Notes: a model not told the origin generated them from the sequence alone. Shown: positions 5,468 to 53,099, counted from the stretch's first letter. The stretch: DNA of 64,000 bases from Bilabrum cf. latius (GCA_965178125.1 OZ237768.1:310001-374000), one strand, 5' to 3'. Program-made: numbers and translations.

Positions 5468-5761
5468 GTCGGATGCCGCGAATCGATTGCTGCAACGAAG
5501 GGAGTGTGCAGTTGATTGCGTGCTGGCAACGGTGGAAAGCAAGGTGGCCCGAATGTATACAATGCAATATAACTCACGACGATCGAGCCAAGTGGCGCAA
5601 GATTCGAGACTTTTGCAGCACACTTGTCTTGGGTCGCACCGCGGATCCGGTGCGCTGGCGGTCGCAACCACTTCGCCGAGTGGCGCCGCGCACTTGCCAT
5701 ATACGAACGAGGATTACAAAAGGCATCAAGTTGCCTCCTTCGTTTCTACTGAGCTAACCAT

Positions 5762-12177: not shown

Positions 12178-12376
12178 ACTGGTGCATATCGCAAACTCTG
12201 TGCGGCACCAGTAGTCCTTCGCAGCCAATTGGGCCATACCTAGGCCTTCCAGCGGCTATCTGTTCGAGTCTAAGCATAAAAACCGTCCATTTCTGCAAAC
12301 TCTGCCGATTCTCCCTGCGAATCTTGCGGTTCCGCCGGCTTGACATAGTTCGATCACGCCAACAGCGTTCGTAAGC

Positions 12377-15146: not shown

Positions 15147-17503
15147 ATGGGATGCGTTTGGTCTCAGCCCGGAGATTTGGCTGCTAATCAAGTGAGATGC
15201 GATGATGACATCATACTGACTGCGAGCTTGTGTCGCTCTCTCGTATCCTTGTTTACCGTCAAAATGGCCATGACAAGATGCCCTGCCAAATTCCGCAGCC
15301 AGCCGTGCCCCGACCGCTGCACGGCCACGAGGAGCCCTCTGATCTGCATTCGTCCGGCAGCCTGAAGTCATTACATGGTGATGATGCTATCGGCTTGCAT
15401 CTTGGTCAAGGTGCGGGCCCAATACTTCAACAGACCGGCTCGTCCGGCTCAGCGATGTCGCTGAGGCCGGCAGGGCAGAGCGCCATGGCCAACGACACAG
15501 TCGTTTGGATCATCGCTGCAGTGAAAAGCAAGAGACAAAGAGCTTTCTTCTCTTGCGGGATCAACGAAGCAAAGGCCGTGCAGATGTGGTTTCAGAACCT
15601 GCACAGCGCCTTTGCAAACGTCGTCGCACGTAATGCCGACGCGATCGGTTCAGCAGACAAGCTTCGATGCGTGGCAGCATGCGAAAGCTCGTTCATGGCA
15701 CAAGTACCGAAGAAACTAAGGGTGTGGACCAAGCAAGCACCAGCGGCTCAGGAGCCGACACGAATCCCCCGCCATATCGTGACCTCGATGCTGCACAGCC
15801 TTCGTTTGCCTGGCGATCCGAGCCAGAATCGATACAAAGTGATCGGTGGAGTTGATATGACACGGGACTTTAGTGGCAGCATGAGTGCAGCTTCGGTTGG
15901 ATCTGTGGGCGTGTTTTCAGGTGGTTTGGGCAGCCGGTCGGGCACTCGTGGCAAGTCGGATGGTTCTGTGCTCGGCCTGAAGTCTTGTTTCCGGAAGCCA
16001 TCAGACCGCAATCAATTCTTGGTGAATGGATCTTTGTCACTGGATCTGCGGCTGTAGTAGAGGGGCATCGGCGGGAAGAGGGCTGGAAGCATAACTGGGA
16101 CCAGAGCGGCAAAGCGAGCAGCGTCGCAGCCATTCCACGCTACAACAGCAGGCCGGTGGTCGCACAGGCTGCGCCTGGACGATGACGATACAAGCAGCGA
16201 GTCTGGCGACGAAGGCGGCCCGGATGGCATCTCCAGGGTGCGCGGCGTCCCTCCCGCCCCTGAGGCTCCAGCCACGGTGGGACACGGAGACATGGACCGC
16301 TCAGCAGGTGACGACGATGCAGCGAGCAACAACGCCAGCGGTCCCGGGACCAAGCCAGGCGCCGATGATGGCAGAGAACACCGTGGAGACAGCGAGCTCG
16401 ACTCTGGTGCAGAGGACCAGCCCCAGCCCTCGCCGAGCAGCAGCAGCACCTACGACTCCCTGACCAAGACAGGGTCCGTCGGGATGAGCAGCGGCAGCGG
16501 AAGCTCACCAAGGGGGCCCGGCATGTTCAACCGTCAGATGGTGCTGCGGGCAGTGCAGGGAGAAGCCAGCATGAGCTCTGTGGCTCGGAGCGCCAGCGTG
16601 TACATGACCACACCCCCCGTGATCGAGGTGGCTGCGACTTTCCTAGGCATCCAGCCGCATGGGAGCGGTGGGGGGTGGAAGGGGACACACGGTGCGCGGG
16701 TCATGAAGGGGATCACCCACGGCAAGCAGTCCCAGCCCACCGCAGATTCATGTGCAGGTTCAGGTGCAGGTGTGTCTGTGGGAAGGCCCTCTTGCCGGAC
16801 CGTCTCGTGTCCTGCAGTGGACGGGACTGCACACCCTGCTGCTGCCTCCACCGGTACGGCACACAGCCCGCACATGCCCACTGCCACCGGCCCTGTCTCC
16901 AAGTGGGGGGCCAAGAGAACAATGGCAAGGGGATACCCCGCAGCCAGCTCGGCCGGTGCGCCTCGTGCTGCCCCTGCTCCTCCCACCAGGTCAGCATCCA
17001 CGTCCAACCAGGTCTTCCCCGCCCCGCCCAGCCCACCGCCGACCCATGATGTTGCTGCTGATGCAGCCTCGGGGCCCGGCACTGGCACAACTCCCGGAGA
17101 CAAGTACATTCCCACGTCCCTGCACTCGGTGCCCATGGCCCGGCTGGTGCCCTCTGATGTGTACCTGCCTGCCACCAAGCAGCACCAGACCATCCCCGAG
17201 CACGGGCCTGCGCCTGACACTACCACTGGCAGCGAGTCTCCAGACCACATCGCCAGGATGGCCAGCTCGGGTGCGTCCTCCGTGGGGTCCTCCATGATCG
17301 GCGTGCAGTAGGAGGAGAGGATGACGCTGACTCCACTGTTCCTGCTGACGATGCAGGGGCGCGGGTGGGACGGGCTGATGCGGCAGGCTCATTTTGTGCG
17401 GATGGTGAGGAACATGATCGGGGTGCACCACCTGGCCTTCGTGAAGCTCGAAGATGCGGGGGGACTTGCATGTGTGGACGCGCTGGGATCAGCTTCCATC
17501 TGA
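15147..17503 (+). CDS. Tandem family copy B (apparent C/A recombinant); intron 15192-15298
   Basis: MGCVWSQPGDLAANQ|GTGAG...CCGCAG. TAG TAG at 16055-16060 and TAG at 17309 join ORFs 15230-16057, 16238-17311 and 17321-17503; TGA stop. Confidence 0.75.
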
Positions 17504-17882: not shown

Positions 17883-20203
17883 ATGGGATGCGTTTGGTCT
17901 CAGCCCGGAGATTAGCCTCCTAATCAAGTGAGATGCGATGATGACATCGTACTGACTGCGAGCTTGTGTCGCTCTCTCGTATCCTTGTTTACCGTCAAAA
18001 TGGCCATGACAAGATGCCCTGCCAAATTCCGCAGCCAGCCGTGCCCCGACTGCCGCACGGCCACGAGGAGCCCTCTGATCTGCATTCGTCCGGCAGCCTG
18101 AAGTCATTACATGGTGATGATGCTATCGGCTTGCATCTTGGTCAAGGTGCGGGCCCAATACTTCAACAGACCGGCTCGTCCGGCTCAGCGATGTCGCTGA
18201 GGCCGGCAGGGCAGAGCGCCATGGCCAACGACACAGTCGTTTGGATCATCGCTGCAGTGAAAAGCAAGAGACAAAGAGCTTTCTTCTCTTGCGGGATCAA
18301 CGAAGCAAAGGCCGTGCAGATGTGGTTTCAGAACCTGCACAGCGCCTTTGCAAACGTCGTCGCACGTAATGCCGACGCGATCGGTTCAGCAGACAAGCTT
18401 CGATGCGTGGCAGCATGCGAAAGCTCGTTCATGGCACAAGTACCGAAGAAACTAAGGGTGTGGACCAAGCAAGCACCAGCGGCTCAGGAGCCGACACGAA
18501 TCCCCCGCCATATCGTGACCTCGATGCTGCACAGCCTTCGTTTGCCTGGCGATCCGAGCCAGAATCGATACAAAGTGATCGGTGGAGTTGATATGACACG
18601 GGACTTTAGTGGCAGCATGAGTGCAGCTTCGGTTGGATCTGTGGGCGTGTTTTCAGGTGGTTTGGGCAGCCGGTCGGGCACTCGTGGCAAGTCGGATGGC
18701 TCTGTGCTCGGCCTGAAGTCTTGTTTCCGGAAGCCATCAGACCGCAATCAATTCTTGGTGAATGGATCTTTGTCACTGGATCTGCGGCTGTAGTAGAGGG
18801 GCATCGGCGGGAAGAGGGCTGGAAGCACAACTGGGGCCAGAGCGGCAAAGCGAGCAGCGTCGCAGCCATTCCACGCTACAACAGCAGGCCGGTGGTCGCA
18901 CAGGCTGCGCCTGGACGATGACGATACAAGCAGCGAGTCTGGCGACGAAGGCGGCCCGGATGGCATCTCCAGGGTGCGCGGCGTCCCTCCCGCCCCTGAG
19001 GCTCCAGCCACGTTGGGACACGGAGACATGGACCGCTCAGCAGGTGACGACGATGCAGCGAGCAACAACGCCAGCGGTCCCGGGACCAAGCCAGGCGCCG
19101 ATGATGGCAGAGAACACCGTGGAGACAGCGAGCTCGACTCTGGTGCAGAGGACCAGCCCCAGCCCTCGCCGAGCAGCAGCAGCACCTACGACTCCCTGAC
19201 CAAGACAGGGTCCGTCGGGATGAGCAGCGGCAGCGGAAGCTCACCAAGGGGGCCCGGCATGTTCAACCGTCAGATGGTGCTGCGGGCAGTGCAGGGAGAA
19301 GCCAGCATGAGCTCTGTGGCTCGGAGCGCCAGCGTGTACATGACCACACCCCCCGTGATCGAGGTGGCTGCGACTTTCCTAGGCATCCAGCCGCATGGGA
19401 GCGGTGGGGGGTGGAAGGGGACACACGGTGCGCGGGTCATGAAGGGGATCACCCACGGCAAGCAGTCCCAGCCCACCGCAGATTCATGTGCAGGTTCAGG
19501 TGCAGGTGTGTCTGTGGGAAGGCCCTCTCGCCGGACCGTCTCGTGTCCTGCAGTGGACGGGACTGCACACCCTGGTGCTGCCTCCACCGGTACGGCACAC
19601 AGCCCGCACATGCCCCCTGCCACCGGCCCTGTCTCCAAGTGGGGGGCCAAGAGAACAATGGCAAGGGGATACCCCGCAGCCAGCTCGGCCGGTGCGCCTC
19701 GTGCTGGCATTGCCCCTCCCACCCGGTCAGCATCCACGTCCAACCAGGTCTTCCCCGCCCCGCCCAGCCCACCGCCGACCCATGATGTTGCTGCTGCTGC
19801 AGCCTCGGGACCCGGCACTGATACAACCCCCGGTGGCAAGTACATGCCCACGTCCCTGCACTCGGTGCCCATGGCCCGGCTGGTGCCCTCTGATGTGTAC
19901 CTGCCTGCCACCAAGCAGCACCAGACCATCCCCGAGCACGGGCCTGCGCCTGACACTGCCACTGGCAGCGGGTCTCCAGACCACATCGCCAGGATGGCCA
20001 GCTCGGGTGCGTCCTCCGTGGGGTCCTCCATGATCGGCGTGCAGCAGGAGGAGAGGATGACGCTGACTCCACTGTTCCTGCTGACGATGCAGGGGCGCGG
20101 GTGGGACGGGCTGATGCGGCAGGCGCATTTTGTGCGGATGGTGAGGAACATGATCGGGGTGCACCACCTGGCCTTCGTGAAGCTGGAGGGGGCGAGGGGG
20201 TGA
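17883..20203 (+). CDS. Tandem family copy C; intron 17928-18034; C-terminus altered by a 65-bp repeat
   Basis: Near-identical to B over the 5' part (offset 2736 bp). TAGs at 17913, 18791, 18794; CAG at 20045 where A and B have TAG; TGA at 20201-20203. Confidence 0.75.
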
Positions 20204-20537: not shown

Positions 20538-21438
20538 TCAAGAGCAGCACCCGCCGCTTGGCTTCGTGCCATCATCGTCGTCATCATCCACCTCTACAAA
20601 ATCTTCACCCCTCTCGCCTTCCCTCCCCACGTTATTTATGATCAGTTTAGCCAACTCTCGAAACGCCTCGGTGACTCCCTCGCCCGTCTTGGCCGATGTC
20701 TCCGCCACGACAAGCCCACCCTCCCGTTTCTCCAGGGCCTTTTTGACCTGCTCCACCAGGACTTTTCGGCTGTCGTCCGCCTCCTTCCTGCTCCGCGCGT
20801 CCATTCGGTCCAGGATGTCTGTCTTGTTTCCGATTAGCACGATCTGAGCGTCTTCGTCAGCCAAGCTGTGTATCGTTCTAACGTACTCATCGAGCACTTT
20901 CTGCAGCGTGGACATATCGGTGACGTCGTACACGAGGATGATTCCTTTCCTGCCGCGGATGTGGCTCTTTGTGATAGAAGCAAATCGCTCCTAGCCCGCA
21001 GTGTCGAACACGTTCAACCGGATATTGCAGCCATCCACCTGCGAGCCGAAACACTAGGCAGCATTGGCCGCGACGAACAGATCGATGCCATTCGCTTCGC
21101 AAGACGCAGCTTTGCAGCCAACATAGATGCTCTCACTTCGTCTGTAATACTAACTAGGTCCACACCGATCGTGGCACGATACCCTGGCCCGAAACGCTCT
21201 CCAGCGTATCCATGAACTAGTGTTGTCTTACCAACACCAGCGTCTCCGAGCTGCAACGGTGCGCATGAGTTCGATGAGCAGGATAAGAAATACGTGTAGC
21301 GCGCTCTTCGACCAACGATGAACAAGAAATGAATGATACAGTGCGCCAGCGAGTAGACCTTACTGTGCACGCCGTAGTCGACAGGTCGTCCTCAATGTCC
21401 CCTATTCCTCCATAAGCGCCTGAATGGGCACCTGCCAT
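20538..21438 (-). CDS. Rab-family small GTPase; exons 21438-21364 (tentative), 21250-21137, 21038-20538
   Basis: GDAGVGKT, ATIGVD, FDTAG[TAG]ERF, VYDVT, GNKTD, ETSAKTG and C-terminal CCS prenylation motif; TGA stop. GT..AG introns 21251-21363 and 21039-21136. Confidence 0.92.
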
Positions 21439-21630
21439 ACAATTGTTACGCAGCGAGTGACTTTGTCTGGCCGCAGATGTATTGGCTTAGTGTTTGACCA
21501 GATCCATCCACGAATGTTGCGTTCTGCCAATTCTTTGATATCATCTTCATATTTGGATGTTTGGTTACAACCGCTTTCGAATCGGTTGGACGCGAGCAAC
21601 TTCTCGGGACACCCAACACGTTTCTGGCTG

Positions 21631-24600
21631 ATGTCAACCCAGGATGAAGTGACCTAGCGATTGAAACGCATCCAGAAAAGGAAGCATGAGATCGCTGTGC
21701 TTGAGTCTCTGCCTCCTGCTAGGTATCAGGCATACGTGAAGCTTCAACAAAGGCAGGCCGCTGCTTCAATTTAGCGGGCCTTTCGGCGCAAGCAGGATGG
21801 CGATTATAGTGAAATCGACTTGCCACGTTTGTCTCCTTCAGACAGTCACGGCGGTGTAATCACGTCTTTGGAAGGAGAATCAAAACATGTAGAGACGAAA
21901 AGCCCAGACCGAGGCGACGATGTCGGCGATCGGCCGCAGGACAAGTTGGCACCGGAGACCGCCGCTGAACGCGATGTAGATGATGCATTTGCTGCACCGG
22001 ATGGAGAAGCTTCATTGAGCGCGGACGTCGCCGTTGATCCAGGGGCTCTGTCTCACAAGCAGCACGAGTACCTGCAGTGGGCCGAAGATGAGCACCGCGT
22101 CCGCGGCAGGCCGCGCTAGCTGCGCCATTGGAACGGATACGCGGACGTAGACGCCGACACGAGCGGTCGCGAAGCAAGCGGCCGGTGGATGGAGCGAGCA
22201 CGCCGGATTGCTCATCTCAGGGCAAGGTCAGAAGCCGCCCTGCAGTCCCTCCACGGCCTCAAACCGGAACATCGCGCCCCCGATGCCGCTCGATCAGCCG
22301 AGAATGCTAGCCCCGGATCAGGTGCTCGACTCAGCGGTCCCACGGCGCGCCACCGCCGCTCGCTTCTGGCCCGCAGGACGGCTGCACTCAGGGCCCGGCT
22401 CATGAAGCCACCGACTCTGCACGATGTGTGCCCGCCCACGACTGCGGAAGGTGCGGCGGCGGCGGAACAACAGCGAATCGGAGGCACGGGGCATGGGTCT
22501 GATTCTGGCTCCGAGTCGACCTTATCGGGGCTTGGTAGTGGCGAGTCTGCCAACAAGGGCCAGGGCCAGAGCAAGGGCAAGGGCGAGGGCAAGGGCGAGG
22601 GCGAGGGTAGCGGCCAAGACGGCGGAGAAGACGACGGGGAAAGGCAAGGGGGGAGAAACGGAGAGGGTGCAGACGAGGAGGGTGACGTTGCTGGAGACGG
22701 CAAGGCAGACGGAAGGCAGGTGCGGCGCCGCGCTTTGGACCGCAGGGCAGATATGTTCCGCAAGGCCGCCGAGGCTGCGCGGCGCCTCACACCATCAGAC
22801 CCTCGCATCCGGCGAGCAGGGGAGAGGGCACACCGGGACATGCTGCGGGCTCTGCTGCCGCCCGCCGACGCGGCACGGGAGTGGTGGGCCGTGCATGCGG
22901 GCGGGCAGAGCACGGATATCAGGCAGGAGCAGGAGCTGCCACTGCAGGTGCTAGAGGTAGACGCGACCGCTGCTGCTGCATCCAAGGGCAGCGCCGGCGG
23001 GGAAGGAGGAGAACCAGGCGATGGTACTAGCGATGAGAGCAAGGGTGCAGCGCACGATGGTGCAGCCACAGCTGCCGCTCCCGACGCCCCGCTGCCTCCA
23101 TCAGACCCCAACTCCCGCCGGTACACGGAGAAGCACCCCTCCAGCGGCTGGTGGCTCGCATACTCCGCAGGCCCGTTCGCGGGAGCGCCCCGCCTCGGGC
23201 CACTGAGCCCCGCAGGGGTACTCCCAGCTGCCCTCAGGCGAGGCACCGCCAGGGAACACAAATCCACCCATGGAGACAGGCGCGACAGGGGTCGCGCGTT
23301 GAGCCAGTATCCGAGGTCAAGACAGCCCGTGGCTGCGGGAGGGGGGGGCGGCCCAGAGGTTCCCCTGCCGGTGGTGGCCGGTGCGATGGACCGGCTGGGG
23401 ATCGTGGACCCGTGGGACGGGGACCGGATCCTTGCGCTGCAGAATGCGCGGCGCCGGGCGGACAACGGAACCGGAGAGGGTGACGGGTCGGCAGGCGGCA
23501 CGCTCCGTGTGGGCGTCAACGGGCAGGCGCTGAGCCTTGAGGGCATGGAAGAGGCCAGGAGGGCGGCGGCAGCGGCAGCCAGGGAACAAGACGCGGACAG
23601 TGGAGAGGTGGACCCCGATGTGACCAATGACGGTGTGACGAGTGCGATCGCGGGTGGGCAGGAGGCCGTCGGGGACGGAGAGTCGGCCGAAGCCGCAATC
23701 CAGGGAACAGCGCAGGCACTGCTGGGTTCCGCAGGCGTGTCCGCGGCAGAGGCAGCGGCCGCTGCCGGCCTGTCCGAGCTCAACGACCCGCTCTCCGCCG
23801 CCCTGCGAGCCGCTCCCTCGCTCGAGGCGCCCGTGGTGCGGCCCTCTTCGTCCTCGTCGGCCCCCGAAGGATCCGGGTAGCAGGCCGTGGGTGGTTCCGC
23901 TGGCGCGGCGCCAGGGACGGTGAGCCGGTACGAGGGCGGGTTTGACCGGTACGGCGCCCCCGTCGCCCGCAGGTTGCCATCCTTCGCCGTGCCCAGCGGC
24001 AGCGCGCAGGAGAGGGCAACGCTGGTGAGGGTGGGGCTGAGGAGAGACACAGGGAGGGTGCTTCGGGCGGCCCGGCGGGCGCAGGAGGAGATACTCAGGG
24101 AGCAAAGGCGTCAGGGTGGACAAAGTGGTAGCGATGGGGAGGGCGGCAATGACGACCAGAGAGACCACGATCAGGTTGACAGCTGGGAGGCGGGCGGCGG
24201 GGCGCAAGCAGACAGCATGGTCAGGGACTCGCTGGATGGCAACCGGCTTGCGGAACCGGATGAATCGCGCGGCGCCGGTGGGGTTGCCATCCCTGTTAGC
24301 ACCGTGGGACGATTAGGAGGTTCCGCAGGCGCCGCGCATCCAGGCAATTTCTTCGTGCTGACCAGGGAACAGGTCCTCGAGATGGCGCAGGCCGTGGGCG
24401 GCGGCAGTGGTGACAGCGACAAGCGGGGAGGAGAGAATAGCGGTGCTGGGGACAGGGAGAGGGGGACACGAGGTGTTGGTAGAGGGCGAGGAAATGGGGA
24501 GGCATTTTACGGTGGCAATGGCGGTGTGAGCGGCGCTGGGTTTCAGCCGGGGCGCTCTGCCAGGTCATAGAGGAGCGGCCGCTCCATCCCCTTCGATCTG

Positions 24601-25731
24601 AGCGCGAGCCCAGTGACCACGGTGGCGGAGGATGATGGGAGGCACAGGCAGGGCTACGGGCAGGGGCGGGGACGCGGGGACCAGCACAGGGGGGCTGGGG
24701 GCAGCAGCGGCCTTCGAATTGCTGGCTCCGGCACCAGCGGTGGCGGTGGCGGTGACAGCAGGATAACCGGAGAGTCGCCCTCGTATGGACGGGGGTCGGC
24801 CCGCCGCATGGGATCGGATCAGCATGTATCGCAACCGTATGACGCCTTGGAATCGTCGCACGCATCCGCCACGTCGGGCCGCTCCGCCGCCAGTGCCAGC
24901 GATGTGGGCCAGCGCGTGAAGGAGTCCTTCGGCCCTGCCGCCACCCCCTCCAGAGTTAGGACGCCTAGGGGCAGGCCGGTGGAGGAGGGCGCCAGGGAGA
25001 GGATGGAGCACCCCGGAAGGTCGCTCGCAGCGCAGCTGGCTGCCGACACGGTCACACCCGCGAGGCGGCGCGGGAACTGGGATGATGGCGCTGGTGGACG
25101 GACCGTGCAGGGGACCGGCGCTGCACGCGATGGGGGATTGGGAGACGCGACTGGGTTTGGGCCACGGGACAGCGCGGGCAGCGGCATGGGCGCGAGCTTC
25201 GAGCGAGACGCAGAGGCCCTGGTCCCTCGATTGGGTGAGGGCAAGGGCGAGGGCCGGGGTGCGCATTCTGGGACCAATGCAGGTGCAGATGCAGATACAG
25301 GGGGCGGGGGCAATGGTGCCCGGGCTAGCGGCATCCTTGGACCAAGAGATGCTGGGGGTAGGGACGGCGGGGGCAGGGAGGATCCCTTGAGAAGGTCCGT
25401 TCGGTTTGAGGGGGAGGGAAAGGGAGAAGAGGAAGAGGAAGGGGAGTCAGGCATGGGCGTGTATAGGGGGGGTGCGTCTTCTTCGTCTTCTTCCTCTATG
25501 CGCAGGCCCACTTTGAGCACATCTGAGGCCAGGGTGCGCGATCGTGAGCTGTATCTGCACAATTCGGCAGGATAGGATGGTGGCGGTGGCGATGAACACG
25601 GGCGTGGTAGAGAGAACCTGATGGACGCTACCGGCAGCAGCCTGGACTTCAGTCGGACCAGCGAGGTGGAGGCTGGTCGTGGCCATGCAAGTGCCGCTGG
25701 ACAAAGCAGCGTGGCCCGGAGGTACGGGTGA
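21631..25731 (+). CDS. IQ-motif protein with long Gly/Ala/Ser-rich tail (~1366 aa); N-terminus loosely reminiscent of the IQCB1/NPHP5 C-terminal region
   Basis: Single frame with six TAGs (21655, 21772, 22117, 23878, 24568, 25573). AAASI[TAG]RAFRRK is an IQ motif. Ends TGA TAA CGA TAA at 25729. IQCB1 similarity is from memory and unverified. Confidence 0.75.
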
Positions 25732-33753: not shown

Positions 33754-36700
33754 ATGTACGGTTACACGATTTTTGTCGCTTCACTTATTTGGCGAAGTAC
33801 ATGTGTGAGCATCGCAGCCTTATAGCACCATACTTGAGCTGACGCCATTATGAAAAGTGGTTCGGTTTGGTCCAGTGCAATTTCAGTTCTTCTTGCAGCT
33901 CGATCTCCCGGAGCATATCTCCCTATAGTTGGACGTGACGAATGAATCGATTATAGTATCGGGGCAGGACCTCGCTGGGAGCGAACCACAAGGCTGTAAG
34001 CTAAACTGTCGGTGGACCTCAGCAAAACCGGGCCAATAGCAGACACGCAGCGCACTTTCCATGCCTTGCCTTTTCGCCTCGCAGATCCGGTGTACCCGAT
34101 CATTTTGACAGGAAGTGGATCTAGAAAACCACGTGCACGACACAATGAGGTACTGTACGCCTACCAGCTGCCACGGAGCAATCCTCGTTGGAAGGACGCC
34201 TCTCGGTCGATGCTCGCTTCGGGTGTGTACAGCGGAAGCACTCCCGGCAGCCATTCTAGTCCAGTATACGAAGGAATCCCATCGTTGCTCTCTGGTGGCG
34301 GTGCTGGACTGTGCAAACCAGGCCTGCTGCCATCGCGCTTCACCGGCTGCATTGATGCAGCAACACCACAGCGACAGCACGCCTGGCACAGCGACAATGT
34401 CAGTGTAAGCAAGCCCGCCCCCGATGCGAAGTATGGACTGGCATCAAGCTAGAGCACGGGAGAGTCTCTGCACATGGCTCCTCCTGTCGAGATCAACTGG
34501 AGGCCCAGGCCCATGCTTGCGAAGCAGGTCAGGTGTGAGCTGGGTCGGCACCACGGTGTGACGATTGAGCGACCGACGGGCGGGCCCGGACTCACTATGG
34601 AGGTGAAGTTCATGCCCACGGCCCTGTTGCCACCCGAGGGGGGGATATGGTACGTGTCCTGGCCTACGTTTCAGTACGACAAGTTCCACCCGGCGGAGAA
34701 ACGGTTCCAGCCGCGGGTGTGGTACCTGACGTGGGGCATGGTGGCTGCGCGATAGAGGGGTGTTTCGGGTGCATCGATGGGTCCTGCCAGCATGCAATGC
34801 GTGACGGACTGCTTCCAGAGCAACTCAACGCCACCCTTGCGGGCCGGCAGCGCGCAGGAAAGAGCTGTCGCACGTTGGAATCAAGAGGATCCCACGGGTG
34901 CTCATGCTCGCTCGCCTCGATCTAGCAACAGTGCAATAACCTTTGTGGCGCTGGGGAAGTCACAACTATTATTAAACGGTACAAAAATAAACGGTGGCAT
35001 GCAGATGATGGGCGAGCAAGCTCGCACGTATCTGCCATCTCCGGTGGACCCAATGACGCAACAGATGCGGCAGACTATTTCGTACGAAGCGGTCGTCGCT
35101 ATGAGCGGGCGCAATACCGACGGATCTGAAGCGAGGCAAAAAGGTACTCGGTCACTGGATCACCTCGCAGCACAGGTGGCACCCGGACATCCTCCTAGCG
35201 AGTTTGCGACCAGCCCGTGCCCTGCCCCGCAGGATTCAGGCGACCAGGTAGTGTGCTTCCACACCATGCGCGGCTGCACCTGTGTGGACCCCAATGCACT
35301 GTTCGCCAGCAACTCTATCATGAACCGGTGGCATTACATGGTGACGGCATCATCCTTCACATCGGATGCGATCAGAGTGACCGACACCTCGAGGTGCAAC
35401 CAGACCATGATGCAGATCACCTCGATCGACTCGAATTCAAGCCTCGTTGGACCGGGCAAAACATCCGCTGGTGATGGTGCATTTTACAAATGTGCATTTT
35501 ATAGCCCATACAGCCGTGGGAGTACCGATCTACCGTTCGCGTGGGATGGCTTCAACAAGACAGCTGGTAGGTCTGGTATGACTAACGGTCAGTTGGGCAG
35601 GAATGCGACTTTCGAGGCAGTGGTTTGGGTTGGAAAAGATACCATGTACAGCGGCAACGTGATGTATGCAAACTCGTCTATCGGCCTTGCCATGGGTGGG
35701 TTCCAATCGACGGCCGACACGAATGCTGCGGACCTCGCCACAATGGTGCCACCCTCCATGCCTGCTGCTCTTGTGCAGCACGCGGCATTCTAGAGGCAGT
35801 ACATGCCGCACAGGCTGAGGCTGGATCTCGCTGTCAAGGACCTCCACGGTAATGTGGTGCCAAACGGGCTGCCTCGGGTCCGAGGGGGTAGGTGGATCTG
35901 CAGCGAGACCAGTGCATTCGCCCCGTTGTCTCTGGCCCCTCAGTGCTTGGCTGTGTGCAATGACCCGCGGTCCATTGTAGATGACCGCAGCGGCGTGAAC
36001 GCCTCCACCACCAGGTATTGGAGCAGGTTCTGGAACGCCCCTGTGAGGTTGTGGTTGGAGCCGAGCCAGCAAGGCTCCGATGTACCGGCCATCAAACGCG
36101 TGTGGACCGGGGATACCTTGCAATGCCGCGCGGTGGATGCATCGCTGCACAGGCAAAGTCACACGTGGCTCGCTGGAGGAACATCCAGGGGTGGAGTGGG
36201 GTTCATGTCGGGCCTTGAGTCACTGCACCTGGATGTGTCCATACCCGGGGTGAGCCTGCAGTGGTACACGAACGAAGACCTTGCCCAGCTGCTTGAGGTT
36301 GACATCAAGCAGGAGGTATTGTCTGCCCTGGGCATGCCTGGATCCGGTCCACTCTCCGATCGATATTCTGAGCTGATCTACGTGCGTATGATGCCTGCAG
36401 AAGGCGCAGGCGGGTCATCTACTTCAGACTTTCGTGCTAGTCCTGTAGGATTGCTGCCCGATGAGCTCGGTGTGGCCGCGGTAGCTCGAGCCAGCACTGT
36501 GGTGCTTGCAGGCGAGATTGATGCGCAGGAGATCGGACCAGCTGTGGGCGCAGATGGGCAGAACGGAATCATGGAAGCAAACATAAGCCACGCTCGGAAA
36601 CAGAGCAGGATCCTGGGTGCAGGCAGAGGCGTTGCTCCTCCGCTGGTGCATCTGCAGGCCTTGTGTGCTGCAGCGCTGGATGAGAGGGACCTGTCGTGTG

Positions 36701-39700
36701 CGAAGGACGCAGACGAAGCGTGGTCCACTTTCGTTGCTTTGAATACGGAGCGTGAGTCCTCTGCAAGCCACGAGCGATCCCTGGACCACAGCTGGATCGG
36801 GTCGGCGTGGGAGCAGGTGGGCGAGCCAAGAGACGGCAGTCTTGTAGCTATCGAGCCCAGGCCAGATACCGGCAATGACTTGCGCACCCAGTTGCATCGC
36901 ATGAATGCGTCGTGCTCGCACCGGCATGGATGGCCCCTCCCGCTCTCCTCTCTTCGGTCTCGACTGCGCTCCCGCCTTGGTGTGCAGGCAGGGATTCACA
37001 CGGCGCATGACTGCGTGCTGAAGGCTGCAGGAGTTGCAGTGGCAGTGGGTCGCAATGAAAAGTCTGGATCAGCGGAATCTAGCGGGGGGCTGTCTTCTTC
37101 ACAGACCCCGCCGTCTGTCAGGTTGCGCATATCATTTCAGCGCGATGAGCTTCAGCAGCAGGGCAAGGACGGTATTGCATCTGCTCCCTTGCCAGCCTCT
37201 TTGTCGACCAGAACCATGGCACGATCGCTGCTGGGAAACCTGTACGCCGGGAGCACTAGAGCTGAGGCCACGCTCGTGGGGAACTACCTGCCCCTGGCCT
37301 CGCATGCTGGTGTCTCCGTTCGGTTGGAGCAGCAGTGCCCGTTCGGGTGGGGGTATCGCACCCTTAGTACAGAATACAGCGGTAGCGCAGATGCAGTTGC
37401 GTCGCATTTGTTCGCCACTGGGGACGATCCCTTCCACAGGTGTCTTTCTATTGAAGCTATCATTGCTCAATCGTTGCTGTGTGCGGGTGTGCTGGTCGCT
37501 GCTTTGAGCTGCTGCTTCGGAATGAGGGTTGCAGGATACACTGCTTTCGAGCTGGTGTCGGATCAGAGGACCCGATCGGCGGACGACGCAGGTGATGGTA
37601 GTGGCAGGGGTGCAGGGATGGCACTTCTGGTGCATTGGCTCGATGAGTCGGTGGCTCGTTCGACACTGTGCAGGCTGTGTCTGTCCGACCTGGGCCGTAT
37701 CGCGTGCAGCTCGATGCGCGATGTGATGGGCCCTGCCCTATCCGCTGTGCTGGTCGCATGCGATCTGGTGGTTGCGGCATTTGCTGTGTCAACGTCCATT
37801 GGACAAGCCGACTGCAGCATCGCTGGGTGGCTGGCCTGGAGCTGCGTGCTGCTGGAGGCTGTGCTTGGTGTGATGGTGGTGCTGTGCCGGGTGCTGCCAG
37901 CCGATGTCGGGACGTTCCCAAACCGAGACGAGCCTGCGAGCAACAACGGGTGGGATCGCATGGAGGACGGAGATGAATTCATTGCAGGCGGCACCGGGAT
38001 TGAGGATGACTCTGGGCACCAGCACCTTGATCCGATCACTACGAGCAGGATTGCGGCAAAGACTCCTCGGTTTGAGCTGTCATCGTCAGCCGTTGGCCCT
38101 GCTCGCGATTCGTCCCTTGTGCACGACCTGCATGCCGCTGTTGGGGGCTCGAGCGCAACTGAGTCCGCACAGGAGGAGAGCGTGCACTCGCAGGCCGTGC
38201 GGACTGGCCATGGCAGGTCGCGTGCTGCAGGGAGGATGCAAGCGCTGCGGCGGTACCACACGATGGGTATTCTGGTGGACATGTGTCCATTCGAGCCCAT
38301 GTGCTTGCCTGCATGGTGTCTCTGCTGCAGGGGCTGCTGTCGATCGAGGCACACCACAGCCCTGGATCTTGCAGAGAGCATGCTCGATTCCGATGGGGCG
38401 AGTCTGGCCACAAGGAGCCGGCACAGTAGTAGCAGCGTGGCTACTCAGTTTCGCAGGCCCGTGGATCTGTCCGACCCGTTAGACTGCTTAGCGGCGCAGG
38501 AGCTGGGCATGTCGATCTCGATCGGGCAGGCGGGTCCGTCCCGACTGCGGGTGGGCGAGGGTCAGGAGCTGCTGAGGACGAATGCGACGTGGGGCACCGT
38601 CGCGAGTCTGTTTGCGTGCGATCCGTCAGGATATCTCGCCATGCAGGGCGGCGTGTCGCGAGGGTGCTGGCGGTCGATCTGCTGTTTCGATTGCTGCAGC
38701 GTGTGCACGGGTAGCGATGGAGCAGCTTCAGAGGGCGAAGTGGGGTGGGAAGATGACGTGGACCGGTGGTAGCAGGGCGTGTGTGCGTGCCTGTCCGAAT
38801 CGTTGCAAGGCCAGTCCACCAGTGGTCATGCATACTCGCCGAGTCAGTCAATCAGCCGTAGTGGCGGTACGAGATCTAGACCCGACCAGCGTACCGGTAG
38901 TGTCGACGAGTCCACGGATGCGGCCAGCCATGCATCGAAAAGACAATCACCGGAATCGTTCGATCAATTACACGCAAGTAGAGCCGGCAGTGCGCCAACT
39001 AGAGAACCCAGTGCACTTCGAGGATCGACTAGCACCAAAAGGAGCCACCAATAGGATCGTGCAGCAGCAGATCGAGGCTCAACTCGATCTCGGTTTCAGC
39101 TGCGCACTAGATTGGCTGGTGTGTGTGTTATTAATCATCACAGCGAATCGCACGCCAACAGCAGGCTAGGTGCGCTTTAGATGACCGGCACGAGCGAGCC
39201 GGCAAGCTCTGATGTCGGAACTCTACGAAGCGCCCAAGATACCTCAAGTGCGTCCAGTGTCGACGGAAAGGAATTCGACGTGCTTTTTGAGCCGAGTGAG
39301 GTGTTGATGGGAGGTGTGATGGTCGTGAACTAGAAGCAGCAGACCGTGCAAGCTCAGCAGCAGGTGTCGCAGCGAGATGCGGACGGAAGCCAAGCTGAAG
39401 GACGAGCTTATAGGAGCGAATCGCTGCTATATGAAGCTAGCACGGATGACGCCATGCCGTCCAAGTTCGGGCTGTATTTGGAGTCTGAGTTATAGCGAGG
39501 AGGTGGCGCACATAATCTCGAGGATTGTGGATTGGGTTCTGATGGCAGCGAGTCCGATAGTCAGCACCATGTCGAGAATGCACGGCTTGCATTGTCCGAG
39601 GACAATTTTGCCGAGCCATTTGACTATCTCAAATCAGAGCACGGTGCGGGTGAAGTCTTGGATCTGGATGAAATGCCTATCAAGCCAGGCCATGCAGCTG

Positions 39701-43209: not shown

Positions 43210-46200
43210 ATGTCTGCCATCACTGCCTTGGACGTAACGTTTGGAGAATCATTCAAGTCGGGAGCTTTCACACGAAAGCAGGACCGCTCTGTGAATGGGG
43301 CAGGTGGTAGTGGCGCTTCCTGGCTTTGGCTCGGTAAACACACTTTAGACGCCGAAATCGTTGAAATGCGCTTACTATCAGGTGACGAAGCTTGCCCGAC
43401 GGGCTGGGAGAAGGTGCGGAGAGAAGTGTCACACAAAACTGGCGAAGGTGCGAACGTGTTCATCGCTTTCAGACGAAAATCAATTGGCGAAGTTGCACAA
43501 CCAATTGTCGATGTTGCTGTCCTTCATGTTGGTGAAGATTCTGTGCCCTGTGAGACTATTGGTTTCGTGAACGGAATGTTCGATTTCCTCACCGATTCGT
43601 GGATATTTACGTATTGCCAGGATCGCATTCAAATGAGCACTTGTGCGGAAAATGTCTTCCGTTTGTCCTCTGCCTTTTCCATTTCTCACACTCAGATGGC
43701 TACACTGTCCTAGAGCACCACACCAGCCCGGTAGGATCCCCCGTGACGGTTCGGCTCGCAGTTCGCCATCGCAAGGCGGGCGACTGGTCCTACTAGTCTC
43801 CGGGAGATATGCTATAGGTGGGAGACCGCTGCGACGTGCGCTATGAAGGGGCGTGGTTCAAGGGGCACGTGACCATGTTGACCGGTATTCATGTGTTTGT
43901 CAAGAGGTGCGGATACGAAATGGACGGAGAGATCAAGCTCCTAAAGCAATCAGATGGACTGGCCGCTTTCGGCACCCACACGGAGTGCGGTACCTCCGAG
44001 AGTCGTAGGATGAACCCCGCCTTGGTTGGTCCAGGCGAGACATTCGAGATCAATGCTGAGACACTAGTCGCGATGCAAACTGAAATCGACGCGATCATCC
44101 GCGGTACAATGACCCTTGAAGCTGCTTACGATGTCGTCGAGCAGCACCTTGCTCCGTGTCTAGAACAGGCGCTCTCGGCCGACATAGCAGATGCGGAAGA
44201 TGAGAGCATCTACACGTTCACGCAGTCCGTCTTGCGTTTGTGCGTGTACTTCATGTGCAGGCCGGAGCCTCTGCATCCCGCCGTCCGGCAACAGCTGGTG
44301 CGTGTATTTCTTGGTGATCAAAAGTGCTCGCTGTACTTTCGCCGCAGGAGGAACGGGATCTTTGGGACGGCCCCGGGGGCGGACCGCTTCATCGGTGAGA
44401 CGGCTAGGTTTCCCGCAAGTGGAGCCTGCAAATACTTCGTGGGAAACGTGAACTACTTCGCCAAGATCGGGGGATACGAGGTGCTGGCTCGCCGGCTCGA
44501 CAGCTGCGGTAGCTTCCAGGTACCGATCAAGGAGCTCAAGGAGATTGTGCAGCACGTGATCAAGACGCCATTCCGCATGTTTACGGAGAGGTTTGCCAGG
44601 GACATGTTTCCGAGGCTGTACATCGCCGTGCTGAACCGGTTGCTGAGGATGAGCAGCAACGAGCTCCAGGTCTATCCAAGGGACGTGACAAGCAAAGAGG
44701 TGCAACAAATCATGACTAACGTATACGAGGCCATTTAGCTCCCGCCTGCCCGCGTACCCGGCAATCCTGGTTTCCACGGGTACGGGGAGGTGCTGCCCAT
44801 CCCATATGACGAGATGATGGAGACGTGGGACGCGAGGATGTCTCTGCGGCAGCTGCGGGCAGAGCCAAGATCGATCCGGATCTAGGGGATGATGTACCTC
44901 GTTGATATGGTGCAACAGACCAGGCGCAGGGAGGGGCGACTCGTCAATTTCGTGCTCGTGGACAACTAGCCTGTGAGGCTTCCCGAGTCGAAATACTGGA
45001 CGGGTTCCACCCTCGCCCAATGGATCAAAGAGGCCGGCGTGGTCTAGGCGCTGCTCGGTGCTGCAGAGGACGGTGACCTCTCGGGTGTGGTCAGGCGCAG
45101 GGCCACTCCCGATGCGGACGAACCTGATCGTCCGCTGCGAGCATGCGTCACTTTGGTAGACCCCAAGGCAGCCAAGTTCATGGCTGGGGAGGAAGAGGCC
45201 GCCCGGGCCGCCAGTGAGCACAGAACATTTGAAGAGGATGGGCCCGCATCGGGTGCTGGCGCAGGCTGGCCTGATGTGTCTGTGCACCAAGCAGTCTCGG
45301 GTCCGGCCACCGCACAGCCCCAGTGTTTTGCTGCTGGAGGAAGGCCTGGGCGCTTCAACTCAACGTATGCAGGTGTATTGGCTCATATGCCCGAAGTGCT
45401 TACGCTGCTAACAGAGGAGAAGCAGTTGGGCCCAGATCCCAATGCCGCAGACGATGCTCTCAGCAGAGCCTTTCAATCGGTCTGGCGCTCAGGAGAGGTC
45501 GGCCCAAAGGTGCCCTACGGGGGTCATGCACCGATGCAGGAAAAGCCCGATGCAGGGCAGCTGGCACCCGTGAATCACTTGGGCCGCTCAGCAACAGACC
45601 AAGGTAGCACCACAGCTGTAGTCGATGAGGCAGACACGGATGACGATGACGACCGTCGGCCCGCCCGGCTGGGCATCATGATATGCGGTGCATCCGAGTC
45701 CAGCAGCAGCGAATGGATCCTATGGTCGGACGGCACGACATTCCTGCACGACATCAGTGAAAAAGGACTGGTTACAGCGGTACCGCCGCGCCTTCGCCCG
45801 ATGCTGCAGTGGAGGAGGGCAGTGGAGGCCAAGAGGGACGCTGGGATGGTGTTCCAGGCGGCGAGTGAGGGCAGGCCACTGGAGCTGGGCAAGCGAGTGC
45901 GACTGGGTAAACTTGCTGGTGGGTTAACATCCATGGGAGCGATCGAGGTGCTGCCAGGGAGCAAAGTGGCCAGAGCGGTTGAGTTGATGACCGGTGGTCG
46001 AGCTGCTGATCAGGCCGCGCAGCTAACAACATTGCGTTGCACTCCGCTAGTCGCTGCGATGCTTCACGAGCATCATGAATGCGTCAAGGTGCTTGCAAAG
46101 GTGCTCCGAAGCTCGTGGGTATCAGAGCAACAGCTCGCAGCCAGGGCAGGCCCGAGCTCCGGAGGGCCCCCGATCGCGTCTGCAGCGGGCGAGGCAGCTG

Positions 46201-47707: not shown

Positions 47708-49880
47708 ATGCGTTACGTGTTTGACTCTGCCTAACCCTTTCCCCAACTCGCTCACTCGTGGAATCGCCGCAGCTGCCGGAGATGGTGACGACCCGTTGTC
47801 GCTGTTTGCAGAGGAGATGCAAAGCGAAGAGCCAGAAATTCGAATCGCCGCTATGAAGAAGCTAAGGAACGTTGCATTGGCTATTGGAAAGGCAAGCACG
47901 CAGACAAAATTGGTTCCATTGCTAGGAAGTGAGAGGGGACGTTGATGATCAGTTGCTTGAATTCCTTCCCCACCCATTCACGGGAGCAGCATTGCGAAGC
48001 CAAAGCGTTATTTTCATCTCCCCGGGCCCCGCCCCACTACCCCCTTATCCCCTCCGATTCTCCGCCGCCCCTCACCTTCATCCCCCCCCTTCGTTCAACC
48101 CCTATCCGCAGAGCACGTCGAAGACGATGACGAGGTGCTGCTGGTCATGGCAGAGCAGTTGGGAGACTGCGTGGACGTGCTGGGCTCGCCGGACGCCGTT
48201 GACCTGGTGGAGGTGCTCGGGCTGCTGGCCACCACCGAGGAAACGGTGGTCAGGGAGGCCGCGGTGACTTCCATCAACAAGGTGGTGGCGGTACTCCCCG
48301 CCGACACGGTGGCCTCCAAGGTGGTGGGGGTGGTGGAGAGGCTCACGAAAGGGGACTGGTTCACGGCGAGGGTGTCCGCTTGCGGGCTGTTCGCGGGGGC
48401 GTACGAACGGCTTGGTGCCGGGAGTGCCTAGGAGCGGACCCACCTGCGGAAGCTGTTCGCGGCGCTGTGCAACGACGACACTCCGATGGTACGGAGGGCA
48501 GCCTCGAAGTCCATCGGGGCTCTGGTGCGGGCCACCGAGGCGAGCGTGGCCGAGGCAGAACTGATCCCCTTGTTCAACACTCTGGCGGGCGACGACCAAG
48601 ACAGCGTGAGGCTGCTGGCTATCGGCAACTGCGCCGCGTTCGCCGAGGTTCTCTCCGAGTCGAAGAACAAGGAGCTGATCCTGCCCCTGGCAGTGGCATG
48701 CGCAGAGGACAAGTCGTGGAGGGTGAGGAACAACGTGGCCAAGGACTTCCACAAGCTGGCACGGGCCATCGGCCGTGAGACCACGCTCGCCAAGCTGGTG
48801 GCGGGCTTCGTGCGGCTCCTTCAGGACCCAGAGGCCGAGGTGCGCGCCTCTGCCGCCAAAAACGCGCACGAGTTCTGCGAGGTCATAGGCCCGGACGCCT
48901 TCGTGCAGAGCATCGTGCCGTGCCTGAGCGATCTGTCAGCTGACGTGGCGCAGAGCGTCAGGGTGTGCCTTGCGGGGTCACTCGTGGGAGCGATTGAGAA
49001 GCTGTCCGAGGCGGACGCGACCAAGCACTTGCTCCCGCTGGTGCTGCACTTCTTCAGACCCGATGAGGCCGCCCAGGTCAGGGTGAAGGTGCTCGCCTCA
49101 CTCGACGTGGTGGCTCGCGCCGTAGGCAAGGAGACGCTCAAAGCCAAGGTGCTGGAGCACCTCATCACGCTCAAGCAGGACTCCCAGTGGAGGGTCCGCT
49201 CCACTGTCATTGACCAGACTCCGCTCATCGCCAAACTGCTGGGCGCCGATGTGTTCTCCAAGCACCTGCTTGAGGTGGTCACGGACGGTTTCTCGGACCA
49301 TGTCCACTCCGTGCGGTTCGCCGCCAGCAGGTGCCTCAAGCCCCTGGCCGAGGGACTCGGAGCCGAATGGGCGGGCAGCGTGATGGTGCCCAAGCTGCAG
49401 GAGCTCTACAGGAGCGGCGAGTCGTTCATGCAGAGGATCACCGTGGTGCACGGGGCCGTGTTCCTCGCCCACGGGTGCAAGGGTTCGGCGGCCGCGGAGG
49501 CCTGCGCTGACCTGGTGGTGAGGGCAACCAGTGATGCAGTGCCGAACGTTCGTTTCGTGGGCGCGAGGGCCGCTGAGAGCGTGGCCGCGGCCGTGCCCAA
49601 GGCGACCCTCGACGGGAAGCTGGTGCCCGCCCTGAGCGGCATGGCCGAGGACCGTGACTCTGACGTCAGGCACTACAGCAAGCGAGCCCTCGAGAATGTT
49701 GGGTCGGGGCTCGCGGGCAGCTTCTCGCCAAGCAGCCTGTACGCCGGGAAGAACTACAAGGACGGGTCCGAGCTCGGAGGGGCCGGGTTGCTGGCTGGGG
49801 TCCGCGGCGCGCCGGGGGCCGATGAGGACGAGGAGGATGTGGGCGGGGGCGCTTCCGCCGCGGGCGGGGCGGGCAAGTGA
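47708..49880 (+). CDS. PPP2R1A: Protein phosphatase 2A scaffold subunit A (HEAT repeats); intron 47929-48111, possible micro-exon start 47708-47711 with intron 47712-47772
   Basis: DDDEVLLVMAEQLG, EETVVREAAV, DWFTARVSACGLF, DDTPMVRRAA, DDQDSVRLLA, EDKSWRVR, DPEAEVR, WRVR, DAVPNVRF. One TAG at 48429; TGA stop. Start codon uncertain. Confidence 0.93.
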
Positions 49881-51164: not shown

Positions 51165-53099
51165 ATGTCTAGACCGAAGGTGTTCATGGACGTGACAATG
51201 TCGGGGGTCCCGCTGGGACGCATGGTATTCGAGCTCTTCAGCGACTTGGCACCAAGAACCTGCGAGAACTTTAGATGCTTGTGCACTGGCGAGCGCGGCA
51301 CTGCAGAAACAGGGGAAAAGAAACTATCCTTTCTGCGGAGCTGCTTCCATAGGATCATTGCTGGCTTTATGGCTCAGGGTGGCGATTTCACGAACGGCGA
51401 CGGAACGGGAGGCGTGAGCATCTACGGCGATCGATTCGAAGATGAACCATTTGATGCAAAGCATTCCTAGGCCGGGATGCTTTCAATGGCAAACATGGGA
51501 CCAGACACCAACGGATCACAGTTTTTCATCACATTTCGCGCCACTCCGCACCTGGACGGCAAGCACGTTGTGTTCGGCAAGCTTGTGGAAGGCTTCGGGG
51601 TGCTGAAGGCCTTGGAGACGGTGCAAACGGGCGAAGGTAATCGACCGATAGACCCCGTGGAGATTGCCGCGTGCGGACAGGTGGGCGGCAGGATGGCAGG
51701 CTAGACGTCCACTAGCTCGGTAGCGGTAGCCGGAGCAGGCGCCGCCGGGCAGGGCCCCGCAGGTGGTGGCGACATCCCGGGCGCCGCCCCGCTCACCTTG
51801 GACGCCCTGCCCAAGCGATTCGGCAGGCGAAGGGAGCGAGACGAAGAGGCGGGTGGGGCCACCGGCGTAGTGGACGAGCGAGCCGTGCAGCGGCTGCAGA
51901 CGGGTGCACCACTGCCAGCGGCAGGAGCCGGAGCCGGAGCCGGAGCAGGAGTGGGAGTGGGAAGCGCCGAGGGGCCGGGGGCCGCTGGCAGGCTAGCTGA
52001 AGGGGCCCTCGAACATACCCTGCGGGAGGGGCTGGCCCGGCGCAGGGCACAGGAGGCTGCGAGGAGGAGGGAGGCTCTCGCGGCGGCGGGGCTCGGTGAG
52101 GAGAGGGCTGGTGGAGGGGCAGGTGTGACGAGTGATGGTGTGACGAGTGGTAGTGCAGTCGGTATTGCAGACAGTGAGGTTAGTGCTGGCCAGGGCCAGG
52201 GGCTCAAGCCGGAGACAGGGGAATAGCCCGGGGCTGGCGCGGTGCCGAGCAATCCCTACTTGGCGCATTCAGCCCAGAGCGATGCAACATCGCTAGGCGA
52301 GCTAGGCCAGCCCCCTTCAAATCCATCAAAGCCGAAGAGCAAGAAGAAGCAGGTAATGGAGGCTCGTTTGGCCGCCATCAAGCGACAGATAGGTGCGGGA
52401 CGCAAGGCCAACATCAAGGCAGTGCGGCAGGAAGCGAGGGTGGTAGTGGGGGGAGGGGGGAGAGCAGGAGGTCAAACTGGCCGGGGTGGCCAAACCGGCG
52501 GTGACGATGGCCCCGACGCTGGCGCCCAGCTCCCCAGCGGGTTGAAGCACCTGGGTGAGACGGCCGCGGCCTCAAGGGCAGAGGGTGAGAGGCACAGGGC
52601 GAAGAAGAGGAGGAGGGAGGAGTCGTACGGATGGAACCAGCTGAACAGCGATTTTGCCGCGTCTCAGTACGAGAAGAGGCTGGCCAAGGTGACGGGGGGT
52701 AGGGCGAGGCCAGGCGAGGGTGTGGCGGCGGGGGCAGTGGAAACATCCGACGCTCTCGTGGCGTCGGCGGCGAGCGGCGGGGAGGTTGCAACCGGTGGTG
52801 CTTCTTCATCTTCATCTTCATCTTCATCTTCATCTTCATCTTCCTCAGGGTCCGCGATGGCTGGCGCTGGAGGGTCGAGCGATTTCGCGGATGCGTCCGG
52901 CCTCGATGCTCTGGCTGCGTCCTTGCGGCCTTCGGGGGCAGCCGCCTAGAAGCGCAAGAGGAGGAGGGCGGATCGACCCGACGAGGTGGTGGACTACATC
53001 AACGAGAAGAACAGGCTTTACAACAAGAGGATCGAGAAGTCGTTCGGGAAGTACACGGCTGAAACCAAGGCATCGCTCGAGAGGGGCACGGCGCTGTGA
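51165..53099 (+). CDS. Cyclophilin-type PPIase fused to a C-terminal SYF2 splicing-factor domain (644 aa)
   Basis: [33 protein letters not shown][TAG][26 protein letters not shown]-terminal YGWNQLN..YEKR and [32 protein letters not shown]. TAGs at 51468, 51702, 52224, 52947; TGA at 53097. Confidence 0.9.
52802..52843 (+). repeat. (TCTTCA)n coding microsatellite (poly-Ser)
   Basis: Direct repeat within the cyclophilin-SYF2 linker. Confidence 0.85.

Follow-up and report, generated by a model that had tools for sequence, protein, structure and literature searches.

An in-frame TAG at the catalytic position of a Rab gene and the probable reassignment of UAG to glutamine in an apparently new lineage

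The locus studied here carries a TAG codon in the reading frame of a Rab gene, at the position where the G3 motif usually has its catalytic glutamine, and it raises the question of whether this codon ends translation or is read as an amino acid and, if so, as which one. The evidence base is the window, i.e., the whole 64-kb stretch of DNA that was analysed (64,000 nucleotides), together with one 5-kb relative. The finding reaches beyond Rab: TAG is almost certainly a sense codon in this DNA, and we probably observe a genome-wide stop-to-sense reassignment of UAG, probably to Gln, in an apparently new lineage.

The Rab gene lies on the minus strand and has the following features.

20991..20993, minus strand: in-frame TAG at the catalytic position of the G3 motif (DTAG-Q-E) of the Rab gene, supported by direct reading, alignment, and spliced contigs
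21364..21438, minus strand: Rab exon 1, 25 codons, MAGAHSGAYGGIGDIEDDLSTTACT; exon end set by the contig joint 21250/21364
21251..21363, minus strand: Rab intron 1, 113 nt, GTAAGG..TTGCAG; skipped by one contig each of runs X5, X6, and X7
21137..21250, minus strand: Rab exon 2, 38 codons, LGDAGVGKTT...IGVDLVSITDE; P-loop and switch I
21039..21136, minus strand: Rab intron 2, 98 nt, GTGAGA..CTCGCAG; skipped by one contig each of runs X5, X6, and X7
20541..21038, minus strand: Rab exon 3, 166 codons; DTAG-TAG-ERF, GNKTD, TSAK, and C-terminal GGCCS
20538..20540, minus strand: TGA stop of the Rab gene, directly 3' of the CCS prenylation motif, by direct reading

The presumptive start codon was placed at ATG 21438..21436, since it is the first in-frame ATG inside the covered 5' part. 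Positions 21005..20979 of the minus strand read GAC ACT GCG GGC TAG GAG CGA TTT GCT, with the TAG codon at 20993..20991. Translation of exon 3 from 21038 with TAG as Gln gives VDGCNIRLNVFDTAGQERF...GGCCS, and a longer extract of the same frame under the same reading gives VDGCNIRLNVFDTAGQERFASITK...GNKTD...TSAK...GGCCS, followed by TGA. This exon alone matches the Pfam Ras family (PF00071) with an E-value of 4e-28 and 98 bits and retrieves 667 distinct PDB chains at E<=1e-5, the best solved Rab relatives being Sec4, Rab14, and Rab1B (E 1e-20 to 2e-19). Exon 2 contains GDAGVGKT, an instance of the pattern GxxxxGK[ST] of the G1 P-loop of Rab/Ras-superfamily small GTPases; exon 3 contains the G4 motif NKxD as GNKTD and the G5 motif SAK as TSAK, both of which align to the Sec4 motifs; and the C-terminus, GGCCS before the TGA, carries a double-cysteine motif of the CCX type, the Rab prenylation motif. 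Of the G3 motif DxxGQ, the gene has DTAG followed by the TAG codon where Gln belongs, so that Gln stands there only if TAG means Gln; with this reading, 'dtagqerf' aligns residue by residue with the Sec4 G3 motif in the PDB alignments.

The encoded Rab is divergent, its best homologues being 40-46% identical and none of the 82 exceeding 46%. In the MAFFT alignment of these 82 homologues, the column under the TAG holds Q in 70 sequences, H in 9, T in 2, and V in 1, with E and L in none. The first-pass annotation had assigned the TAG to the equivalent of Ras Q61 in an otherwise intact gene and had proposed alignment to Rab relatives as a check. This alignment, with Q in 70 of 82 sequences, agrees with the minus-strand reading and the PDB alignment, and the remainder of the gene is intact, as judged by GDAGVGKT, NKTD, SAK, and the C-terminal CCS. 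The same annotation called the Gln invariant, which is too strong a word, as 12 of the 82 homologues have another residue in that column; since this is so and the Rab is divergent, a natural non-Q residue at the site is possible. Against the Pfam Ras model, the exon scores 98.1 bits with TAG read as Q, 94.9 as K, 94.5 as E, 94.0 as X, 93.4 as Y, 93.0 as L, and 92.9 as W, and the site thus speaks against Trp, Leu, and Tyr, as had been claimed in a list that leaves out Glu. Among individual codons, the one in Rab speaks most clearly for Gln, but it does not fix the amino acid by itself, because E is found opposite other TAGs of the window.

Contigs of three sequencing runs (one contig each from X5, X6, and X7) join 21250/21364 and 21038/21137 exactly, with zero depth in the Rab introns, and cover 20991-20993 without a differing letter; the DNA run X3 holds the unspliced Rab form only. 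That X5-X7 are RNA is a guess, X7 carrying the tag 'probably DNA', and only the clean loss of both introns suggests that their contigs represent spliced RNA. Since the contigs skip both introns yet keep the TAG, the spliced mRNA carries UAG. The intron at 21039-21136 (GT..AG, 98 nt), predicted before any transcript was considered, is real in that it is spliced out exactly in all three contigs. A silent gene and a cDNA with another codon or splice, the outcomes named beforehand as speaking against the claim, were both absent, the spliced contigs coming from three runs and retaining the codon. The three runs belong to two studies, separate from the study of the best DNA runs, and their contigs end before 20541-20629 (the last ~90 nt of the coding sequence) and the stop, which is a limit of coverage only. 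The runs in which the spliced Rab transcript occurs, with 100% identity, carry two organism labels that differ from the label of the DNA runs, and the source organism may be associated with other organisms, inside or on them, or be a contaminant of their cultures.

Three independent lines of evidence, namely ORF lengths, supported coding segments, and the relative L001, indicate that TAG is a sense codon throughout the window, the DNA of which has a GC content of ~60%. With all three stop codons in force, the longest ORF of the 64-kb window has 992 aa; when only TAG is dropped from the stops, the longest ORFs grow to 2269, 2261, 1640, 1503, and 1435 aa, and when only TAA or only TGA is dropped, the maximum stays at 992 aa. 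Nearly every long gene of the window is interrupted by TAG. We then considered ten segments in which homology determines the frame (the three Rab exons, PP2A-A, cyclophilin, SYF2, a conserved protein without a Pfam family, type II PI4K, prefoldin, and a beta-helix domain), which total 1971 codons. In frame, these segments contain nine TAG, no TAA, and no TGA, and in their other two frames 24 TAG, 11 TAA, and 80 TGA; thus, in-frame TAG is not avoided, whereas TAA and TGA are excluded.

The third line comes from L001, a related metagenome contig of 4964 bp with 59% GC. It encodes an orthologue of the PP2A scaffold subunit A (PP2A-A) of the window, which shares 81% amino acid identity with it and has an in-frame TAG of its own at a different position. 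The two genes diverge with a dN/dS of 0.09 and a dS of ~1.5, and the former value implies that both are under strong purifying selection. The TAG of L001 is opposite GAG in the window, and 117 of 120 other PP2A-A proteins have P at that site. P0084, the public gene call for the L001 gene, terminates exactly at this TAG.

Outside Rab, the following TAG codons of the window could be compared with homologous proteins or motifs.

48429..48431, plus strand: TAG in the PP2A scaffold subunit A gene (ORF 47961-49880, which ends with TGA)
51468..51470, plus strand: TAG in the cyclophilin domain of ORF 50103-53099, opposite A, G, or K in solved cyclophilins, a variable site
52947..52949, plus strand: TAG in the SYF2 C-terminal region of ORF 50103-53099, which ends with ERGTAL and TGA
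43794..45047, plus strand: six TAGs (43794, 43815, 44736, 44883, 44967, 45045) in a conserved protein without a Pfam family, ORF 43554-46442
21772..21774, plus strand: TAG at the Q of an IQ-like motif, AAASI-TAG-RAFRRK, ORF 21424-25731

The PP2A-A column at 48429 is variable, with A in 28, G in 23, S in 18, E in 17, T in 11, and Q in 6 of 120 homologues, and this site and the cyclophilin site were dropped as witnesses for the amino acid, both being in variable columns. The SYF2 codon at 52947 is opposite E in a nematode SYF2 and D in the human one. For the conserved protein of ORF 43554-46442, 50 homologues were found at E<=0.001; the TAG at 45045 corresponds to E in seven of 12 homologues, including a 76%-identical fragment, the TAG at 43794 is opposite Q in the 78%-identical fragment P0210, and TAG sites are often opposite K or R. 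A PDB search returned nothing usable for this protein or for prefoldin. At 21772, an IQ model matches with the Q reading only, and the match is not significant (E 0.32). A Pfam scan of 11 further ORFs matched only the beta-helix exon and the prefoldin gene, and TAG is absent from the matched domains.

The ORF with the IQ-like motif (21424-25731) is of low complexity and has a homologue at positions 1-1662 of L001, 49% identical over 481 aligned residues; its TAGs are opposite S, R, and Y in that homologue, at poorly conserved sites. The two proteins share a conserved C-terminus, ...DATGSSLDFSRTSEVEA...SSVARRYG. In L001, this gene is directly upstream of PP2A-A, whereas in the window ~22 kb, including an inverted duplication, lie between them.

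Recent paralogues within the window provide a measure of TAG exchange, and three sites differ between TAG and CAG.

34450..34452, plus strand: TAG in paralogue A (ORF 33946-40809), CAG in the inverted paralogue B (26403-33242)
38770..38772, plus strand: second TAG in paralogue A, CAG in paralogue B
17309..17311, plus strand: TAG in the tandem paralogue C (15209-17503), CAG in paralogue D (17945-20203)

Paralogue E likewise has TAG, at 14600-14602, at the site of the paralogue C codon 17309. The exchange test used the inverted pair 33946-40809/26403-33242 and the tandem pair 15209-17503/17945-20203, with 2446 well-aligned codon pairs in all. CAG and TAG are exchanged in three pairs against 74 conserved (3.9%), close to the synonymous CTG/TTG exchange (four against 131, 3.0%), while the pooled non-synonymous C/T differences at the first codon position number four against 708 conserved (0.56%). 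By our own Poisson estimate, the probability of at least three CAG/TAG events at the non-synonymous rate is ~0.01. No difference was seen for GAG/TAG (0 against 66) or CAG/GAG (0 against 130), nor for AAG/TAG, TTG/TAG, TAC/TAG, and TGG/TAG; one TAG/TCG pair was seen. Thus, TAG and CAG are exchanged between recent paralogues at a synonymous rate, which is the most telling point for Gln. The inverted pair has 63 synonymous and 57 non-synonymous differences, from which we conclude that it is under purifying selection.

The inverted pair consists of two ORFs of ~2280 aa, 26403-33242 on the minus and 33946-40809 on the plus strand, arranged as a head-to-head inverted duplication with 92% nucleotide identity. 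The two copies hardly differ in their first ~1600 codons but diverge in the C-terminal third, have no Pfam match, and show apparent transmembrane stretches; a search for shorter relatives of the duplicated ORF gave none at E<=1e-5. The tandem array comprises three plus-strand paralogues of 750-816 aa without a Pfam match (12344-14794, 15209-17503, and 17945-20203), of which the last two are 98.6% identical and spaced by 2736 bp, and the first is ~79% identical to both. An adjacent TAG TAG codon pair is conserved in the two close tandem copies.

We also compared the amino acids by a per-site likelihood over nine sites, in which each site contributes a single observation and the substitution frequencies are estimated from the alignments themselves; neither the degree of conservation of the Rab column nor the paralogue rates enter this sum. 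E comes out on top, leading Q by 1.0 bit and K by 2.2 bits; the deficit is 5.4 bits for S and 18 to 31 bits for L, Y, and W. A test on the composition of neighbouring residues was dropped, as its sign flips with the filter (Q over E by 16 bits for all 84 TAGs, E over Q by 5 bits for the 29 in the most clearly coding stretches) and it does not separate Q from L, R, or A. In Iotanema, Gln dominates only 23% of the UAG columns and 19.5% of the columns of canonical Gln codons (PMC5304391), so mixed columns are to be expected for a Gln codon.

It is highly improbable that TAG is still a stop and that the genes are pseudogenes, are expressed by low-level readthrough, or lose the codon by editing or alternative splicing. 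What leaves room for this explanation is that runs X5-X7 are only guessed to be RNA and that the reading of TAG rests on nucleotide data; yet the spliced contigs of three runs have the TAG with no differences and the two introns lie elsewhere, nearly all long genes hold TAG while TGA and TAA never occur in the 1971 supported codons, a PP2A-A gene with an in-frame TAG evolves at a dN/dS of 0.09 between two species, and ORFs of 1400-2270 aa are open except for TAG. Slightly less remote, and still very unlikely, is that TAG specifies a residue other than Gln or Glu, such as Lys, Ser, Leu, or Tyr, or that its decoding is ambiguous, as several amino acids or as sense and stop depending on context. 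Codes with UAG as Leu or Ser are known elsewhere (PMC5304391; PMC11687900), K is just 2.2 bits behind E in the per-site sum, K or R is often opposite the TAG sites, and one TAG/TCG pair occurs among the paralogues. However, that sum leaves L, Y, and W behind by 18 to 31 bits and S by 5.4 bits, the Pfam Ras score is highest with Q, the paralogues have no AAG/TAG, TTG/TAG, TAC/TAG, or TGG/TAG difference, and TGA stands at all three homology-defined gene ends.

Glutamate is the rival with the most to be said for it, although we consider it unlikely; Rab would then have E at its catalytic position. UAR means Glu in peritrich ciliates and Blastocrithidia. In the present data, Glu draws on the E in seven of 12 homologues at 45045 (one of them 76% identical), the window GAG opposite the L001 TAG, the E/D opposite the SYF2 codon, the 1.0-bit lead in the per-site sum, and the preference for E in the strict subset of the neighbour test. 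The GAG opposite the L001 TAG is, however, also expected under Gln, as four CAG/GAG pairs occur between the two related PP2A genes; moreover, none of the 82 Rab homologues has E in the G3 column, the Ras score falls by 3.6 bits with E, P0210 has Q opposite the TAG at 43794, and the paralogues exchange TAG and CAG at the synonymous rate, 7x that of non-synonymous C/T changes, with no GAG/TAG and no CAG/GAG difference in 2446 pairs. Gln is the commonest fate of UAG in eukaryotes, and this background together with all the evidence weighed above leads us to regard UAG, with good confidence, as a sense codon that most likely means Gln.

The remaining stop codons can be judged from the ends of genes. 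TGA ends all three homology-defined genes of the window (Rab after CCS, PP2A-A, and SYF2 after ERGTAL), and the L001 PP2A-A likewise ends with TGA. The sixteen longest ORFs contain 10 TAA and 96 TAG codons, though CAA and CAG number 198 and 499; these TAAs sit near ORF edges, and two of them look like true ends, after ...PPPPPPPGQ (ORF 2495-5725, minus strand) and after ...DEDxEDK (ORF 59378-62377, minus strand). Being rare in long ORFs, located at their edges, and absent from the supported codons, TAA probably still terminates, which would make the change one of UAG only.

We propose the following scheme. The window would come from the nuclear genome of a eukaryote with GC-rich DNA (~60%), where UAG has lost its role as a stop and serves as an ordinary sense codon, most likely for Gln, with TGA as the working stop and TAA probably a stop as well. 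Rab would be a normal, expressed, and spliced gene whose catalytic Gln happens to be spelled TAG. By analogy with other UAG reassignments, UAG may be decoded by a tRNA with a CUA anticodon, derived from a tRNA-Gln, and eRF1 may no longer recognise UAG. A tRNA scan of the 64-kb window and L001 found no genes.

The affiliation of the organism was assessed from PP2A-A. Besides L001, the nearest proteins are from metagenomes, with 51-54% identity; one cluster at 52% identity includes Cafeteria proteins, and named oomycetes come next at ~41%. In a quick single-gene IQ-TREE analysis of 40 PP2A-A sequences, the window and L001 group together (SH-aLRT 100) and are sister to a four-row clade that holds Cafeteria (SH-aLRT 99), all of them inside a stramenopile group with oomycetes and a raphidophyte. 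The organism is thus probably a heterotrophic stramenopile related to bicosoecids, as far as this gene sequence can tell. Cafeteria (Bicosoecida) is the nearest named relative, and both nuclear genomes are GC-rich and intron-poor, but the PP2A-A proteins are just 52% identical. The available part of the Cafeteria genome paper confines its mention of a non-standard code to the mitochondrion (UGA = Trp), with none for the nucleus (10.1101/751586). Halocafeteria was rejected as the source, having 46.8% GC and a genome paper whose available part does not mention a nuclear code change.

The closest counterpart among known codes is that of the fornicate Iotanema spirale, in which UAG alone is reassigned, Gln is its likely meaning, and UAA and UGA are stops, as is probable for the window; in-frame UAG occurs in conserved genes there too, and in the excerpted account UAG is not seen to terminate (PMC5304391). 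NCBI table 15 has the same layout, with UAG as Gln and UAA and UGA as stops. The two systems differ in that Iotanema, a metamonad, ends 104 of 119 scored genes with UAA (PMC5304391), whereas the window has TGA at three of three homology-defined ends, TAA that is rare, DNA of ~60% GC, and a position among stramenopiles in the PP2A-A tree; Gln is also firmer in Iotanema (634 columns, PMC5304391) than in the window, where a handful of sites bear on it. UAG and UAA likewise differ in meaning in some phyllopharyngean ciliates and Protocruzia tuzeti, with reassignment of UAG only, and in the rhizarian exLh (UAG = Leu) and Scotinosphaera (UAG = Ser) (PMC11687900; PMC5304391). All of these are other lineages, some with other amino acids; in the window, Leu is excluded by 18 bits and Ser is disfavoured. 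In NCBI table 6 (UAR = Gln; ciliates, Dasycladales, and Hexamitinae), a stop is also read as Gln, but TAA is reassigned too. UGA is the apparent terminator in Amoebophrya sp. ex Karlodinium veneficum, as in the window (PMC12005148); UAA is the commoner in-frame stop there, whereas TAA is found in none of the 1971 supported codons of the window and elsewhere at ORF edges only. In the table 6 codes and in Amoebophrya, the stop is presumably read as Gln by a suppressor-type tRNA. Amoebophrya sp. Kv was rejected as the source, being AT-rich with UAA as 58% of its in-frame stops (PMC12005148).

Changes of the nuclear genetic code are rare, and those that split UAG from UAA are rarer. Codes of the latter kind are reported for a handful of lineages in the literature available to us (PMC5304391; PMC11687900), and a further independent case would be a data point on their origin. 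The literature searched, which consisted mostly of abstracts with few subscription journals and no supplements, yielded no nuclear code change in stramenopiles or bicosoecids, and a published case is possible. We therefore think that the window probably adds a new lineage to those with a known type of code variant, the reassignment of UAG alone. The more specific proposal, that this is the first nuclear stop-codon reassignment in a stramenopile, found in a bicosoecid-related group of at least two species with GC-rich genomes, changing UAG alone to Gln with TGA and probably TAA as stops, and an independent origin of codes in which UAG differs from UAA, is tentative, and we lean slightly against its holding as a whole. 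The useful features of the system are its place in a GC-rich stramenopile, TGA as the main terminator, and a trait common to a second species, and it bears on whether low use of UAG as a stop in GC-rich, TGA-terminating genomes eases codon capture. In practice, gene callers that apply the standard code cut the genes of this organism short at TAG, as the call P0084 for the relative illustrates, so annotation under table 1 would be badly fragmented.

Several other genes of the window have features of their own. At 51162-53099 (plus strand), a cyclophilin domain and a SYF2 C-terminus are present in one uninterrupted ORF, an arrangement that suggests a fused gene. Since the solved chain 8xi2_M (563 aa, 'PPIase cyclophilin-type domain-containing protein') also matches the SYF2 part, the fusion may be present elsewhere. 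A prefoldin-subunit gene (PF02996, E 4e-6) at 50048-50944 on the minus strand is antisense to the first ~280 codons of ORF 50103-53099 (plus strand), and the upstream part of the latter is therefore probably non-coding. Positions 5753-7537 and 7383-11894 (plus strand) encode a type II PI4-kinase with an N-terminal ubiquitin-like domain; the kinase domain seems to run past an intron into the 1503-aa ORF (...AVDHGSCLP...WLLWPQAKRPLS...), which continues into a long low-complexity tail. Finally, an ORF at 61832-64000 (plus strand) with a reverse-transcriptase-like YADD motif runs off the window end and overlaps the 5' part of ORF 59378-62377 (minus strand); it has two in-frame TAA codons upstream of the motif and may thus be a decayed retroelement.
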